A DNA stretch of 22,817 nucleotides from Patellaria atrata CBS 101060 (taxonomy: Eukaryota), in contig MU006108.1 in assembly GCA_010093705.1 (NCBI GenBank), positions 124,001 to 146,817 of the forward strand. Reading direction: 5' to 3'. This document shows positions 11,731 through 21,015 of the stretch, piece after piece. The first letter of the stretch is position 1; the number at the start of each line of letters is the position of its first letter. The notes beneath the pieces were generated by a model. That model made no database searches and was not told where the DNA came from. It was given only the letters and a program-made list of their open reading frames with translations. The position numbers and the translations under genes are program-made.

Positions 11731-11938
11731 TCATCTGAATAGATTGTATCTATCATAGTCAGCGAGACGTAGTTCCTATAAGCAAGTTAGCTGAGATGTA
11801 ATCCAATTGAGGGCATATCCTGACCTCAAAAGAAAAGTTCTTATGCGGTTCTAGGACTGTGATCGACTGATATGAACCAACCGGTCCTTTCTCATACTCC
11901 GAAATTTCATATGATGAGAAGGGTCTCTCACCTGTTCC
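11731..11938 (-). other. GLEBS (Gle2/Rae1-binding sequence)-like motif at the dynamin C-terminus, split by intron 11824-11776
   Basis: Spliced translation GTGERPFSSYEISEYEKGPVGSYQSITVLEPHKNFSFE|ELRLADYDRYNLFR*. This matches the Nup98/Nup116 GLEBS pattern GT..PF......(F/Y/H)QxIT....Y...S(F/L)EELR..DY, as recalled from the family. Confidence 0.85.
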
Positions 11939-14423
11939 ATGACTCTTATTCGGAGTTCCCACATTGGGATATATCCCACCCCCGTTGTTGGTCGCAAAGT
12001 TCAAAAGTGGCATCGTTGGCTTGTTAGCCGGTGACAAGGAGACCTTTCGGTTTTCTTCATTTTCGCCGAGCTTGTTTGTAGTACTTGGAGACCTCGAAGG
12101 TTTTGGAGTGCTCGCGGGAGTTATCAACTGGCCCTGGCCAGTCACTGTAGGTGGGAAAAGTGCATGTGGCTGGCTCAGCGGGGTTTGAAGAGGCTGGGAC
12201 TCGCCGGTCTTCTTGGAACCTCGTGCCAACTTTTTCGCTACTGTGGCATGTATCAGCATATATCTTCCAGGTAAAGGCCACGCATGTGGGCTGGAGAGAT
12301 CTTTTTCCTGTTACCTGTAGGTGCCCTGGCTACATGACGATTGCATGTCTTCAGACTGATCTCGAGGACCTTTATCTTCTCAGTAAGATAATTACGCTCG
12401 CGCTGCACGTCTTCGCGCTCGGCCGCCAGTATCGCAATATCCTCACTAGACATATGTGATATGGTTGTGGGAGAGAATATTTCGGGAAGGTCGGACATCA
12501 AACAATTCTCCACGGCGAGAACTGCAACGTTATCGATGAATACATCTAAAGCGACCTGGAAAGCATGAGTAGTGTAATAATTGATTATGATGGGACTAAG
12601 AGAGTCATATGTACCTTATAGTATCTGTCCATTAGATCAAGAAGGTCGGAAAACGAAGCTTCGGTATTGCCAACGGACCTCTCTTTTTGTCTCCGCTCGT
12701 AGTCTTCTTCTAGTGCGAGATATCGGGGATTGTAGGTGATGGGATGCCCGCTTTCATGTTGCTTGAGGAGCTCATTCAGTTTCTCTCTTAATGCACTTAG
12801 TCGCTCATCCATACGAGGGTCAACATGTTCCTTTAGGACGATGTCAAAGGTGGACGCATTCGTAGCGCTACCGAGTGCAAGTTCTAAGAATTCCTTTGCC
12901 GCCTCCCAAACATTTGTAATATGTTCCTCGGCTATCTCTCTCCAAGGTCGGGCTTGTTGATAGAATAGATGCCCGACAAGTTTAGGGTCTGTAGTTCTAG
13001 GCAGTTCAGTTCCTCTGTTCACCCTAACAAGGTCGCCAATTTCCGACATAAACGCAGTGCGAGAAATTTGATTACGTGCGGTATTACCGAATCCCTGAAA
13101 ACCATCCACTATTTGTCGGGAATGGCCGTGTTTGGTCATTCGGCGGGAAAATTCCTCGTTGAGATTTTGGATGATGGCCCTCAGATTGGGGTTCAACTCA
13201 GACTCGGCGCGGAAAAAATGGTCGTTATAGATTCCATCGCATGCGTACTTGACAAGATCCGAGAACCTCTTACCAATACCGATGAGATAGGTTCTTTGCT
13301 CATCTGTTGTTGGCCTTGAGGGTCCAAGTTTTGCTACTCTTGATTTTGATGTTGTAATCTCTTCTCGAATTTCCCGAACGACGTTCTCCAAATCTTTAGC
13401 GATATGCTGTAGAAATATCCCACTAAGACGGGAACGTAACGCTGTTATGCCGAGTGATGATTGCTTACAGCTCAACCATTCACTATCCCGGAAATACTCA
13501 GCCTCTGCTTTGTCTCTCTCCTCGGCGGTAGCATTCTTCTCCTTCTGACCCTTATTCTTGAGTACATGCCAGCCGAGGGCAAGAAGATTTCTCTTGTCTC
13601 CATTCTTTGCGAGCTTGATCCAATCAGCTTTCTTTCCGAAACCAGCATCCAAAGTATCAGGTTTAGTGATAATCCCTAGTGTTCTCTCTCCATTAGGATC
13701 AAAGTTGCGAGCCATCTTTAGCACCTCCTGGTTGGCATAGTCGTTCTGCGCCGATACCACAGCCAAAATGATAGTCCGGGGCTGTTCCATGTACGATTCA
13801 ACTAACTGTTTCGCAACTTCGATATCCTTATCGGTTTGACGCTCTGTTTCATTCCTAATCAACCCTGGAAGGTCAACAAGTGTAAGGTGAGGTCGATCGG
13901 GGCCAGAATTTTCGATACAAAGGACATCGTCGCTGAATGCATTCGTATTTGAGCCGATTGGCATCAAGTCCAATACCTTTCTTGCCTGCTCGATTATCCC
14001 GGGGAAATCCTCAGGAGAAGAGAACTTTGGATGAAAATTGAGGAGTCGTTGCCTTTCTTCTTCTGTACGGGTTGGACCAGGTCTGATGCTCACAGAAACA
14101 CGAGGCTTATCTGTTCGTCTCATAATAAGTTCAGTTGCAAACCGAGTGCACAATCCCTCATTAGTCGGAAATTTGGTAAGAGAAATAGCTTCCAGTACTG
14201 AACTCTTTCCCGCAGACTGGTCGCCGCATACCACGAGTTGGGGAAGACTGATATATTTACTGATTCCCAAAGATTTCAGCTTGTCGATATCGTCAAGAAG
14301 CTGAGATTGCTCTTGGGGGTGGAGTTGTGGAGGTGTGAGTGATTTGGGAACATCATGTTTTCCAGGTGGTGGAAAGTCTGAAGGTTGACTCGTCGGTTCG
14401 GAGACCTGCTCGTTGGTTGCCAT
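11731..14423 (-). CDS. Mx-like dynamin-superfamily GTPase (GTPase, stalk, GED) with a Pro/Ser/Thr-rich linker and a C-terminal Nup98-type GLEBS motif; ~836 aa; exons 14423-12615, 12555-12315, 12240-11825, 11775-11731
   Basis: G1 LPQLVVCGDQSAGKSSVLEA, G2 CTRF, G3 LTLVDLPG, G4 IITKPD. Stalk motifs RGTELP and HPITYN; GED YYK|VALDVFIDNVAVLAVENCL...LAAE...ER..L. Introns 12614-12556 (GTACAT..CAG), 12314-12241 (GTAACA..GCTGAT..CAG) and 11824-11776 (GTCAGG..GCTAAC..TAG) join the three listed ORFs plus a final 45-nt exon in frame (2511 nt). The first in-frame ATG is 14423; the listed start 14483 is TTG. Confidence 0.9.
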
Positions 14424-17179: not shown

Positions 17180-19770
17180 TCAATCAGAACGGTATTCTTC
17201 ACTGAGGCGAATTGGGATGGGGAGATCGACGGCGAGAACCCCGACCTTGGTAGGCACCATGCCCTTATGAAAGAATTTATCATTACCTTGAGCGGTTTTT
17301 CTCGGATATAAGGTCGCTTCAATCCCAGGCTCAAGGATTCCGGCCGACATTTTGCAGAGGCGAGAGGCCCTTGGTTGTGTTTTCCTTATACTTGGCTTCC
17401 AGTTGTTCAGTGAGCTGTTCCGGGAATGTCGAGAATGTTCATACCGATCATGTCTGCTGGTAAATTTTCCAGCAGCGGTCTCCTCCCTCCCGTACGTCCT
17501 ATGAGAAAATGACTCTACGAATTCGGGCATGTCCTTTAAATACTCGCCGATTCTTGGGCTGAGTTCGTCTGCTAGCGGATCAAATGTAGCATTAGGGACC
17601 TGCGAGAGCGAGGAACTCTCAAACCAGTGAAAGCGGTCCCACAAAGAGTCCTCCAACGGTATTTGGAGGCTCTCGTCCACATCAGGACTAGGAGAAAGGG
17701 ATGCTTCGCGCTCGACCTTAGCATTGTACATATCGTCCCAGAGGCTGGCAGCAAACCTGTCCATTGTAAACGCGCTCCATAGGCATTGCTGTAGTCGAGA
17801 GACGAGCTCGTCGTACGAATTGATGTCATATTCGGCACATGCCACAGATACTTGATAAACAAACCACGAGCTCTCTGAGGAACCCTGAGCACAGATTGCT
17901 CCTATTACTAGCACCCAGAGTAATAAACCCGGGGATTCGTACCAATCGTCGCTGGATGTGCGTATGATGGCCTGTTGTAATCGCTTGATTGCTGTAAAGT
18001 GTAGGGGGTCAAAACTGGTTTTGGTTATTAGCATCTAACACGATCGTTTGATTCTAGATAACTTAATATCTTACCTCCGATAGCCCGTTTCCGAAATCCG
18101 AAACGTGAATATTAATAGAGATATACAAAGTGTTTCATCTAGGGGCCGAAGGCTTTCCTTCGTTAGATGGCGGAGGAGACGACGGTTTAAGATATTAGCA
18201 TGATTCTGAAGAGCTGCAGGATCCAATGATGAATCATCTTCCTCAAACCAAGAATCTAGTGCGGACGTATATCGGCTTAGGTCAGCCGCAATATTGACAA
18301 CATCTTCGTTGACCCTAAGAAGACGGCAAAAAAGAGCTATTGTTCCCAGTGGTTGCGAGATCAATTTATCGGACAAGACTGTCGCCGATGTTAAAGTACC
18401 ATAATTGTCCGGTAATGGAGTGTATGGTGGATAGAAAGATGCAATCGCATGTGCTGTACTATGCCTAGGACTATCAGTCAGCATTGTCCATGTGATGTAT
18501 TCTCGTTACGTACCACAAGATTAAAGCTTGTAGACACTTATTTGTGCTAAGTGCATGCAGGCCACCCCTTAGCTCCAACATTCGCTTCAGCCCACTTAAG
18601 TGCGTTAGTCGTTGACTGGAACTATCCTCATCATGTTCCCCGTTCTTTTGAAAAAGAGGTAGACTCTCCTCCACACACAAAAGGCCAAAGACAGCTCCAA
18701 TATTGGCGTCGTCAAGAGCGAGTTCAGGATTTGATATATTTGCTCTGATCTCTGCGATAGCTTGCGCTCTGTGGTACATAATATCGTAATACGACCTCCT
18801 ACCAAGCATACACATGTGCACTGCAGTCCCGCAAAGAAAGCTATGCATAAAAGCACGACTTGAGAAAGCCAATGTGAGCCAACCAGACCTAAGCAAATCG
18901 GACTGATGGCGAATGTCCAGGGGTATAGAATTTGGGCTGATGACGGAGAGAACTAATGAAAAGATCAGTAAACATTTGTGCCTACAAATGGAGAGAAAGA
19001 ATCAGAAAAGATGATCCTTCTTCGTGGTGTAAATTGCCGCATATTCCACCTTGCCTTGACTAGTACGTGCCTCCTTCAAGTCTGAGCAGATTCTGTGTCG
19101 TCTATGGGACCTCAGCATTTAATGCAGCGCATCCCATCATGAACGGCCCCCAAGATCACTTTCCATAAGGGGAATTGTCGACAAAGTAAAAGTATTTCTT
19201 ACAATGATCTATAACTTCAGCGTTTTTGGAATCCATTTTGACGGGAAATACTTGGAAGGGGTCCATCAATCCCTCAAGTGATGTGTGCCTCCACATCTCA
19301 GGGGTCATCCCTCCAGAGTGTTTTCGGTGACAACGGCAACGATCTTCATAGTTCCCTTGAATACTTTGCCCGCAATCTTCACAATGGTAAGACCTTTTGT
19401 ATGATCGACGTTGCAGAACGGTCTGACGGGTCACGCTCTCCTCGTTCCCTTCGGCGCTGGGGCTTCGCGTTGTAGGTGGCGTTCTGCGGGCCGATGATGC
19501 CCCTGAAGTAGCCTCAGGTGTCCCTCCCGTGCTGCCGCTTTCCGGACTATTCCTCAGAGGAAGAGCTTTGAGGGAGTTCTTGCTCGTTGACCACGGCCGT
19601 TGCCGTCTGGCTTTTTGCATCACAAAGGACCTGACATTTTGACGTCCCTTGCCCCGGCTGTGATCAGGGTTGGAAGAATCGACGAACAGAAATTCTTGCT
19701 GCACTGGATGCCTTTTTCTTGCGACGCCCTGGGCTCCTATAGTTTCTGAAGAGCTATTTGGTGGTTGCAT
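17180..19770 (-). CDS. Fungal-specific transcription-factor-domain protein (Fungal_trans_2/DUF3468 type) lacking an N-terminal Zn2Cys6 cluster; ~743 aa; exons 19770-19203, 18952-18514, 18464-18075, 18014-17180 (3' end uncertain)
   Basis: Family-typical FLFVD...VRSFVMQKARR, GLMDPFQVFPV, AFMHSFLC, HRAQAIAEIRANIS...DDANIGAVFGL, HLSGLKRMLELRGGL and LLLWVLVIG. Introns 19202-18953, 18513-18465 and 18074-18015 have GT-AG ends and CTRAY branch sites and join four listed ORFs in frame. Confidence 0.8.
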
Positions 19771-21015
19771 GCTGCAGTAGGACGACGAGGCCCTGCTTTT
19801 AGAGCCAGTCTCCTAAAGAAGTGACGGCAGAAAAGCAAAAGCAAGGAATGGGAGCAATACTCAGTTGCAGGAACGATGCTCTTGGATTTCCATATTCGTT
19901 GCTTTAACTTGCTTCGTAAGCTATTTAGTATCTGGGGGCCCACGATATCGTGGCCTTGGCGGATCTGAGGGGCAATGGCTGCAATGTTGTACTGTACCAA
20001 GCTGTTTTGGGACAATTTTATTCGCATATGCAGCGGATGCCTGTAGTCGCAGGATGATCCCTCTCAGAACCCGTCTTGTAAGGCTGTTAGGCTGACATAG
20101 GAAAAAGATCGAATGCTTTTCATGCATGGATTGAATTGCGTTGAAAGTAAAGAGGGTAAAGTATGTGAAGCCCTAGAATTGGAGAATCCTAGAGTATAAA
20201 AAGGGGTCATGCATGCAGCAAGCTTACCGGAAGACTGACAGTATTCAGGTATTCGGTCGCTACAGAAATACGAAGCGCTGGGAAGTGATCGGTGGTCAGC
20301 AAAACGGAGAATAAAGGAACGGTTCTAGAAACGATTGACGAGTGTCAGGGGAAAGTGAGATGGTAGTGGATTGGTTTCATAATTGTCGACCCCCATACAC
20401 AGTATCAAGTCGGGTGCTCCATCTCCATATTCGGTGTCAGCGTGTCAGCAGATTTGACGGTGAAATGCAGCCACGGAGCGCGGGCTTGTACTGCTGTATA
20501 GAGCCATAACTTGCACCCCTTGAACAGAGGTTAAGGTACGATGTCGGATTTTGGCTTCGAGAGGTAGTTCTAGAGACATTGATAGAGGAGAAGGAGGTCG
20601 TGAGGTAGAACTAACTTGCTGCAATTCCCTTATTAAACGCTTCTAAAAACGGTATGACATCTGTGACATCTGCTTCCATTATTCTCGGGACACCTTGCAG
20701 GATAACAGAATACGTCGGCACTCGGCTCAAGATCCCGTTCCGTGTGTTTGGCTTGTTTGCGCAGCCCTAACAAGTAGTAACACAAATCTACCTACAAGCC
20801 GTCGGATAGTCGATTACAATAATAATAAGTTCGATAGCCACGAGGTCAAAGAACATACCCTAGTCACCCATTTTCATCACTTCACTCGCACTGACCTCAC
20901 CTCACCTTAGACACAGTTGAACGTGGGCGAGAGTAGGTAGTAGGGAGGATGAGAGGTTGCTTTCTCTACCAGTCCCTGAGGTGAGCGCGTCGCATTCGTC
21001 CCCTATTTCAACAAA

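Follow-up and report, generated by a model that had tools for sequence, protein, structure and literature searches.

The fungal relatives of the animal Mx proteins, designated MxF, were recognised as a family only in 2025. In PMC11789081 they are described as uncharacterised proteins falling into two clades with strong copy-number turnover, none of which has, by that account, a known function; the same source presents Mx proteins as able to act at the nuclear pore. The GLEBS, in turn, is the Rae1/Gle2-binding motif of Nup98-type nucleoporins. According to PMC3783196 this hairpin occupies the top face of the propeller of Rae1/Gle2, with two glutamates forming salt bridges to two arginines, and in vitro the Rae1-GLEBS unit is able to bind single-stranded RNA. 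In PMC2133102 the minimal RAE1-binding piece of NUP98 is given as residues 181-224, and free or overexpressed Nup98 GLEBS is reported to titrate RAE1 off the nuclear envelope, with poly(A)+ RNA building up in the nucleus, an export block that is reversed by extra RAE1. Here we describe a gene of the fungus Patellaria atrata CBS 101060 in which an Mx-like GTPase is followed, in the reconstructed reading frame, by such a motif. The gene occupies positions 14423 to 11731 on the minus strand of a stretch of 22,817 nucleotides (nt) of contig MU006108.1 (positions 124,001 to 146,817), and this whole stretch is called the window in what follows. Sequence comparison establishes that the tail of the protein is homologous to the Nup98/Nup116-type GLEBS over the whole hairpin of ~50 amino acids (aa), beyond the EE core. 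The reading that we favour, tentatively and at a little under an even chance, is that of an MxF-type GTPase with a GED-like end and a disordered tail of ~150 aa, closing in a captured, splice-completed GLEBS of the Nup98/Nup145N type that binds Gle2.

Joining the four exons (14423-12615, 12555-12315, 12240-11825 and 11775-11731, minus strand) with a script gave 2511 nt coding for 836 aa, with no stop other than the terminal one. The three introns measure 59, 74 and 49 nt and have GT..AG borders in all cases, so that the model is self-consistent, and the exon coordinates and translation proposed in an earlier reading of this DNA, made from its letters without database searches (the sequence-only reading), proved correct. 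The top database match is P0001, a hypothetical protein of the same strain, at 100% identity; exon 1 is identical to it. The parts of the gene, all on the minus strand, are the following.

12615..14423: exon 1 (aa 1-603), with an N-terminal extension, the GTPase domain and most of the stalk, in an open frame from the ATG at 14423
13662..14237: Dynamin_N GTPase domain (aa 63-254; PF00350, E-value 1.7e-35, 123 bits, profile positions 1-167 of 168)
12759..13583: dynamin middle/stalk domain, Dynamin_M (aa 281-555; PF01031, E-value 3.6e-23, 82.6 bits)
12556..12614: intron 1 (59 nt, GTACAT..CAG), also spliced in the deposited P0001 (junction ...YYK/VALDVF)
12315..12555: exon 2 (aa 604-683 plus 1 nt), GED-like bundle-signalling helix region
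12241..12314: predicted intron 2 (74 nt, GTAACA..CTGAT..CAG), read through in the deposited model
11939..12240: first part of exon 3 (aa 684-784), disordered linker beginning with the basic patch KKLARGSKK
11825..11938: last part of exon 3 (aa 785-822), GLEBS N-arm and first half of the core (GTGERPF...YQSIT...FSFE)
11776..11824: intron 3 (49 nt, GTCAGG..GCTAAC..TAG), separating the two glutamates of the GLEBS core
11731..11775: exon 4 (aa 823-836), ELRLADYDRYNLFR and the stop, completing the second half of the core at the very C-terminal end

A reference collection of GLEBS motifs was obtained by scanning metagenome contigs with a degenerate DNA pattern for [FL]EELRLADY, which returned 93 loci. 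Thirty-four were flanked by FG repeats (9 or more FG dipeptides no farther than 100 aa away on either side), 14 had fewer FG dipeptides and an N-arm score of at least 15 bits, seven scored between 5 and 15 bits, and the other 38 were mostly bacterial or stop-ridden frames. The Nup98-96 autopeptidase (E-value of at most 1e-50) and FG-repeat domains were present in all seven FG-flanked loci that were checked. The GLEBS segments of 19 FG-flanked nucleoporin loci were aligned (alignment A1), and this alignment matches the Rae1-bound Nup98 chains 3mmy_B, 4owr_B, 7vpg_B (7vpg/7vph) and 7byf_B at about 6e-9. Moreover, a hidden Markov model (HMM) of the N-arm was built from the 45 residues that precede the pattern and had played no part in the selection, using 26 distinct sequences from 33 FG-flanked loci.

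Both tools recognised the tail encoded by exon 3. The N-arm HMM gave it 27.1 bits (E-value 1e-6 among 6796 sequences), the best unrelated open reading frame (ORF) reaching 7.7 bits, and hhalign of the 52-aa exon-3 tail against A1 returned a probability of 95.4% and an E-value of 1.9e-8 over 41 ungapped columns. The register is that of the fungal nucleoporins over ~54 aa without insertions or deletions; identity to the nearest nucleoporin amounts to 14 of the 45 upstream positions and 9/9 in the core, and the tail retains 10 of the 11 columns of A1 with a conservation of 90% or more. NUP98 residues 181-224 correspond to the part of the tail that is conserved best. These results, together with the invariant EELRLADY, bear out the earlier proposal of a Nup98/Nup116-type GLEBS at the C-terminus. 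Neither the FG-repeat nor the Nucleoporin2 domain, both found in the seven reference loci checked, was matched by Pfam in the window protein, which on its domain content is not a nucleoporin and carries the motif only.

The hhalign alignment stops exactly at the exon border, and exon 4 provides the remaining invariant columns of A1, ELRLADY. This homology up to the border is a strong argument for intron 3 as a real intron. Since exon 3 ends in ...FSFE and exon 4 begins with ELRLADY, the EE pair is united only by splicing, and removal of the intron restores nine invariant columns, an S and then EELRLADY; unspliced, the frame meets a stop at 11759. The claim that the EELR..DY core forms only when the 49-nt intron 11824-11776 is removed was thus confirmed at the FSFE/ELRLADY junction. 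The intron also has a branch-point-like GCTAAC 12 nt upstream of its TAG. The window contains a single match to the degenerate ELRLADY pattern (11755-11775, minus strand) and 100 shuffles contain none, and viral contigs gave no match to the [FL]EELRLADY pattern.

The sequence-only reading had also proposed that the lack of a GLEBS profile hit should count as refutation, which is not a valid test: the Pfam model PF21240 (cut-off 27 bits) gave 20.7-24.7 bits for six of seven true fungal Nup98-96 loci (L049, L051, L011, L017, L007, L038 and L003) and no match for the seventh. On isolated nucleoporin segments of 62 aa it scored 29-30 bits in three of six cases and 14-19 bits in the other three. 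Since genuine Nup98-96 proteins score below the cut-off, a fungal GLEBS is missed by default annotation.

The GTPase belongs to the dynamin superfamily, and its scores against solved structures mark it as Mx-like. In a phmmer search of the PDB the closest were Mx2 (4whj, E-value 1e-37, 133 bits) and Mx1 (117-120 bits), followed by Vps1 (106 bits), Drp1 (at most 102 bits) and dynamin-1 (at most 72 bits), a ranking in agreement with the earlier call of an Mx-like GTPase. The G1 (GDQSAGKS, aa 67), G3 (DLPG, aa 184) and G4 (TKPD, aa 253) motifs are intact. A word-indexed protein search found 5148 relatives with an E-value of at most 0.001 among 8000 scored candidates; the homologue statistics given below are based on the best 120 of them. 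The source names of the relatives include 'dynamin GTPase' and 'interferon-induced GTP-binding protein Mx'. The protein has the same dynamin GTPase and stalk without a PH domain as animal Mx1/Mx2 and the fungal MxF proteins described in PMC11789081, and its sequence fits that MxF family, at the level of the family rather than of either clade (MxF1 or MxF2). It had been described before as a complete GTPase-stalk-GED protein. The GTPase and stalk parts of this description stand, whereas the GED is weakly backed: PF02212 gave an E-value of 0.088 for exon 2 alone and 14.8 bits on P0001, against a cut-off of 21.4 bits, in a match of aa 590-670 to profile positions 5-85 of 92 (81 of 92).

The inclusion of exons 3 and 4 in the mature mRNA is probable, though well short of certain. 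The frame of linker and tail is open over 183 codons (11759-12310) and reaches the GED-like exon, and after the motif the stop comes seven codons on (DRYNLFR-stop). The linker of 102 aa contains 34% Pro/Ser/Thr compared with 21% in the whole protein, as expected from the earlier description of a Pro/Ser/Thr-rich linker of about 100 aa. Its codon log-odds are +7.4 bits in the frame of the gene versus -34.2 and -9.6 bits in the other two, a weak test given that the presumably non-coding segment 11730-11440 also reaches +3.2 in one frame. Intron 2 is one of 35 frame-preserving GT..AG pairs in its area, and it keeps the whole GED-like exon. The two sequencing runs that contain the stretch, X1 and X2 (one sample, one study), consist of DNA contigs identical to the window, which may derive from them.

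Long tails are also found in other members of the family. Among the best 120 homologues 26 have at least 740 aa, with comparable disordered tails after the GED, and in 15 of these 26 the tail ends in a polybasic patch, defined as at least five K/R in seven residues, while an internal control stretch had it in 0/26; five of the 15 carriers are near-identical Aspergillus flavus entries. The carriers are P0010, P0022, P0038, P0041, P0047, P0054, P0063, P0096, P0111, P0113-P0116, P0118 and P0119. These polybasic ends could be candidate signals for nuclear localisation or membrane binding. As 15 of the 26 long homologues end in this way, tails closing in a short motif look like a habit of the family.

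Several observations weigh against the reading that we favour. The deposited P0001, of 703 aa, retains intron 2 and ends at a stop inside it (12253-12255), without linker and motif, and the area of intron 2 offers 34 alternative frame-preserving GT..AG pairs. The donor of this intron, GTAACA, lacks the usual G at +5, as does the accepted donor of intron 1, GTACAT. A GLEBS was found in none of the best 120 homologues, the nearest of which is 48% identical, and the dynamin-GLEBS fusion is so far a single-species case. Within the motif, the nearly invariant glutamate of the N-arm (E21 in A1) is an isoleucine, and DY is followed by DRYNLFR-stop where GR[RK] is usual. Searches with exon 3 alone found no Pfam match, no PDB match by phmmer, no usable match in the ESM Atlas and, in a word-indexed search aimed at longer proteins, none at an E-value of 10 or lower among 291 candidates. 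When the 52-aa exon-3 tail was compared, without a profile, with 1.84 billion representatives, only P0121 came up, a highly repetitive protein of 1995 aa matched in six stretches (E-value 5.9e-10). Its repeat contains EEPFSSYDISEF, which resembles ERPFSSYEISEY of the window and through which the match arose, and P0121 was rejected as a relative, being judged repeat-inflated and unrelated.

The deposited end of the protein at 12253-12255 would be explained if the tail were a relic or an untranslated appendix, that is, if the 703-aa model were right and the GLEBS frame were a captured nucleoporin fragment in the 3' untranslated region or in intergenic DNA. A tail shared with no homologue (best 120 and tail searches) and the off-consensus donor of intron 2 point in the same direction, and we regard this explanation as unlikely but deserving serious weight. 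Against it stand the frame open over 183 codons with its stop seven codons past the motif, the canonical branch site in intron 3, the tails that homologues normally have, and the lack beside the motif of the FG repeats that a raw nucleoporin fragment would show. Moreover, the GLEBS core seems to be under constraint, as 10 of the 11 highly conserved columns were kept although the N-arm agrees with the nearest nucleoporin at only 14 of 45 positions. The public annotation may shorten the protein by 133 aa. It is also conceivable that a separate small product is made, from an alternative transcript or from an ORF starting at an internal methionine (...KPTMPLL..., ~77 aa after splicing of intron 3), as a free GLEBS titrating Gle2 without any part of the GTPase. 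There is an in-frame ATG about 240 nt past the deposited stop, and a free GLEBS peptide is reported in PMC2133102 to titrate RAE1, but the frame is open for ~100 codons upstream of this methionine and joins the GED-like exon in frame, the codon log-odds of the linker favour coding and there is scant room for a promoter, all of which makes such a product very improbable indeed.

A tail that is translated may nevertheless fail to bind Gle2: its motif could be a degenerate, non-binding leftover in a disordered tail, or it could bind another WD40 propeller such as Bub3. The diverged N-arm, the loss of E21 and the different residues in place of the basic ones after DY would agree with this, as would the GLEBS motifs of BuGZ, which bind Bub3 through the same EE pair (PMC9203020). 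The sequence type, however, is that of Nup98: A1 matches Nup98 chains in Rae1 complexes, the corresponding Pfam family is Nup98_GLEBS, a Pfam search with exon 3 alone matched no Mad3/BUB1 family, and the segment given in PMC2133102 as the minimal RAE1 binder (NUP98 181-224) is the best-conserved part of the tail. On balance a non-binding motif or another partner seems rather improbable. As for a chance likeness between a low-complexity tail and a GLEBS, the motif is short and exon 3 alone found no relative in Pfam, the PDB or the representative set, but this can practically be dismissed in view of the hhalign E-value, the N-arm score compared with a background of at most 7.7 bits, the absence of the ELRLADY pattern from all shuffles and the identical register without indels.

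The metagenome loci indicate that the motif also occurs in ORFs other than nucleoporins. The following were found on the contigs or through searches started from them.

L006, 3-1238, minus strand: a single open frame with a BTB/POZ domain (PF00651, E-value 2e-06), then a Nup98-type GLEBS (PF21240, 21.5 bits), then an FG/LFG-like low-complexity tail
L015, 2881-3168, minus strand; L028, 2860-3159, plus strand; L062, 740-1069, plus strand; L068, 2881-3180, minus strand: related short GLEBS-like ORFs (...QYQAISAQ..FS[LF]EELRLADY)
L073, 1908-3416, minus strand: frame of 503 aa with several C2H2 zinc fingers, then a GLEBS (N-arm 38 bits, core FEELRFADY)
L045, 982-3153, minus strand; also L089, L012 and P0128: GLEBS, then FFGL-type repeats and a P-loop NTPase region (GSQGSGKS)
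L075, 1531-3504, minus strand; also L092 and P0122-P0126: DUF7924-like N-terminal region, GLEBS (...EELR[LVM]ADYDRGRRY), acidic tail

From its domains L006 is a possible Cul3-adaptor-like protein with a putative Gle2-binding motif. In L015 and L062 a BTB-like ORF follows the GLEBS-like one (weak, E-values 0.002-0.007), and ORFs with helix-turn-helix domains of Tc5/psq transposases lie near those of L015 and L028. The architecture of L073 recalls BuGZ, although its motif is of the Nup98 type. The NTPase group carries the GLEBS on its N-terminal side, and P0128 has weak AAA/FtsK matches. One member of the DUF7924-like family is listed as a hypothetical protein from Aaosphaeria arxii CBS 175.79. 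In P0122-P0126 conservation peaks at the GLEBS (0.79 versus 0.35-0.55 in the flanks), a value that is biased because the proteins were found with that region as query. The region search from the L075 ORF, aimed at GLEBS proteins of 361-1152 aa, yielded 46 candidates, and in none of the seven scored was a dynamin domain present. The exact [FL]EELRLADY core was also seen in stop-interrupted frames in groups of related loci (L040, L044, L067 and L084; L058 and L061; L076 and L090), either as decayed GLEBS or by chance. Taken by their sequences, these ORFs suggest that the Nup98-type GLEBS is a mobile module in filamentous fungi, and such mobility would make a functional tail on the Mx-like GTPase more plausible.

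If the GTPase does carry a Gle2-binding tail, as we favour, its GLEBS would grip the top face of the WD40 propeller of Gle2/Rae1 through the EE pair and flanking hydrophobic residues, and oligomerisation through the stalk would display several such tails at once. Gle2 would be taken from a free or shuttling pool, in competition with the pore's own Nup98. The outcome might be that Gle2-GLEBS serves as an adaptor, or as a head binding RNA or ribonucleoproteins (RNPs), toward export-competent RNPs; alternatively, less Gle2 might be available for mRNA export. Removal of intron 3 could act as an on/off switch of the motif. Because Gle2/Rae1 binds the nucleoporin's own GLEBS on this same face (PMC3783196), and has room for just one at a time, a second one would be expected to compete with the pore instead of riding on it, and the docking on Gle2 at the pore put forward in the sequence-only reading therefore appears mechanistically awkward.

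A bolder possibility, which we consider very unlikely, is that the tail serves as an integrated bait. The oligomer would show many copies of the Gle2-GLEBS surface, the one attacked by viral export blockers in animals, and a nuclear-replicating mycovirus, a retroelement or another parasite touching Gle2-Nup98 would be captured or sensed. Retention of intron 3 would turn the bait off and its removal would turn it on. In its broader part this idea would make the Nup98-type GLEBS of filamentous fungi a mobile address label, shared by BTB adaptors, zinc-finger proteins and P-loop NTPases, of a hidden Gle2-centred network outside the pore.

Compared with the GLEBS of Nup98, Nup116 and Nup145N (PF21240; Rae1-Nup98, PDB 3MMY), the window tail presents the same hairpin of ~50 aa, ...GT..PF...YQSIT...S[FL]EELRLADY, and compared with fungal Nup98-96 it has the same length and register, with the EE pair of the salt bridges present in both. 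It differs from the Nup98-type nucleoporins in that the motif lies outside a GLFG/FG domain, at the extreme C-terminus of a GTPase and without an autopeptidase, and in that its N-arm is diverged (14/45), E21 is lost, the basic GR[RK] is missing and an intron divides the motif. Mx2 uses an N-terminal extension to reach the pore, whereas the nucleoporin-derived motif of the window protein is C-terminal.

The M protein of vesicular stomatitis virus (VSV) and ORF6 of SARS-CoV-2 attach to a Rae1-GLEBS complex that is already formed and are no mimics of a GLEBS. In PMC7604486 ORF10 of Kaposi's sarcoma-associated herpesvirus (KSHV) is likewise described as binding the preformed complex rather than mimicking a GLEBS. 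These three viral proteins concern the same Rae1-GLEBS unit, that of the 4owr, 7vpg/7vph and 7byf chains matched by A1, but in contrast to them the window tail is itself a GLEBS. A precedent for a portable GLEBS by which an unrelated protein recruits a WD40 propeller is provided by the Bub3 binders Bub1, BubR1/Mad3 and BuGZ; the account in PMC9203020 has BuGZ of Neurospora binding Bub3 through its GLEBS, with the EE pair essential. Their motifs are of the Bub3-binding type, whereas that of the window is of the Nup98 type.

In the surroundings of the gene, four consecutive open frames of 284, 144, 175 and 218 aa lie at 17180-19812 on the minus strand, with no Pfam match at an E-value of 0.01 or lower; they are probably exons of one or two unannotated genes. 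No direct repeats were found around the gene, and only two weak inverted pairs.

Dynamin-superfamily and Mx-like GTPases are already known, as are the Nup98-type GLEBS and the portable GLEBS of the Bub3 binders Bub1, BubR1 and BuGZ. The combination of an Mx-like GTPase with a Nup98-type GLEBS appears to be new. Literature searches judged by title and abstract returned nothing relevant on a dynamin-GLEBS fusion, in agreement with the earlier statement that none was known, nor on a GLEBS with BTB, and for the GLEBS in filamentous fungi the only relevant account was that of BuGZ and Bub3. On the practical side, the public gene model probably truncates the protein, and for fungal sequences the Pfam GLEBS model lacks sensitivity. 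The window protein and the other non-nucleoporin ORFs indicate that a GLEBS of the Nup98 type is a short module able to pass from one protein to another, and the literature searches gave no earlier description of this for the Nup98 type. For the MxF family, a member with a motif of the Gle2/Rae1-binding type would provide a concrete and testable link to the mRNA-export and nuclear-pore machinery, in parallel to animal Mx2, which is active at the pore by different means.

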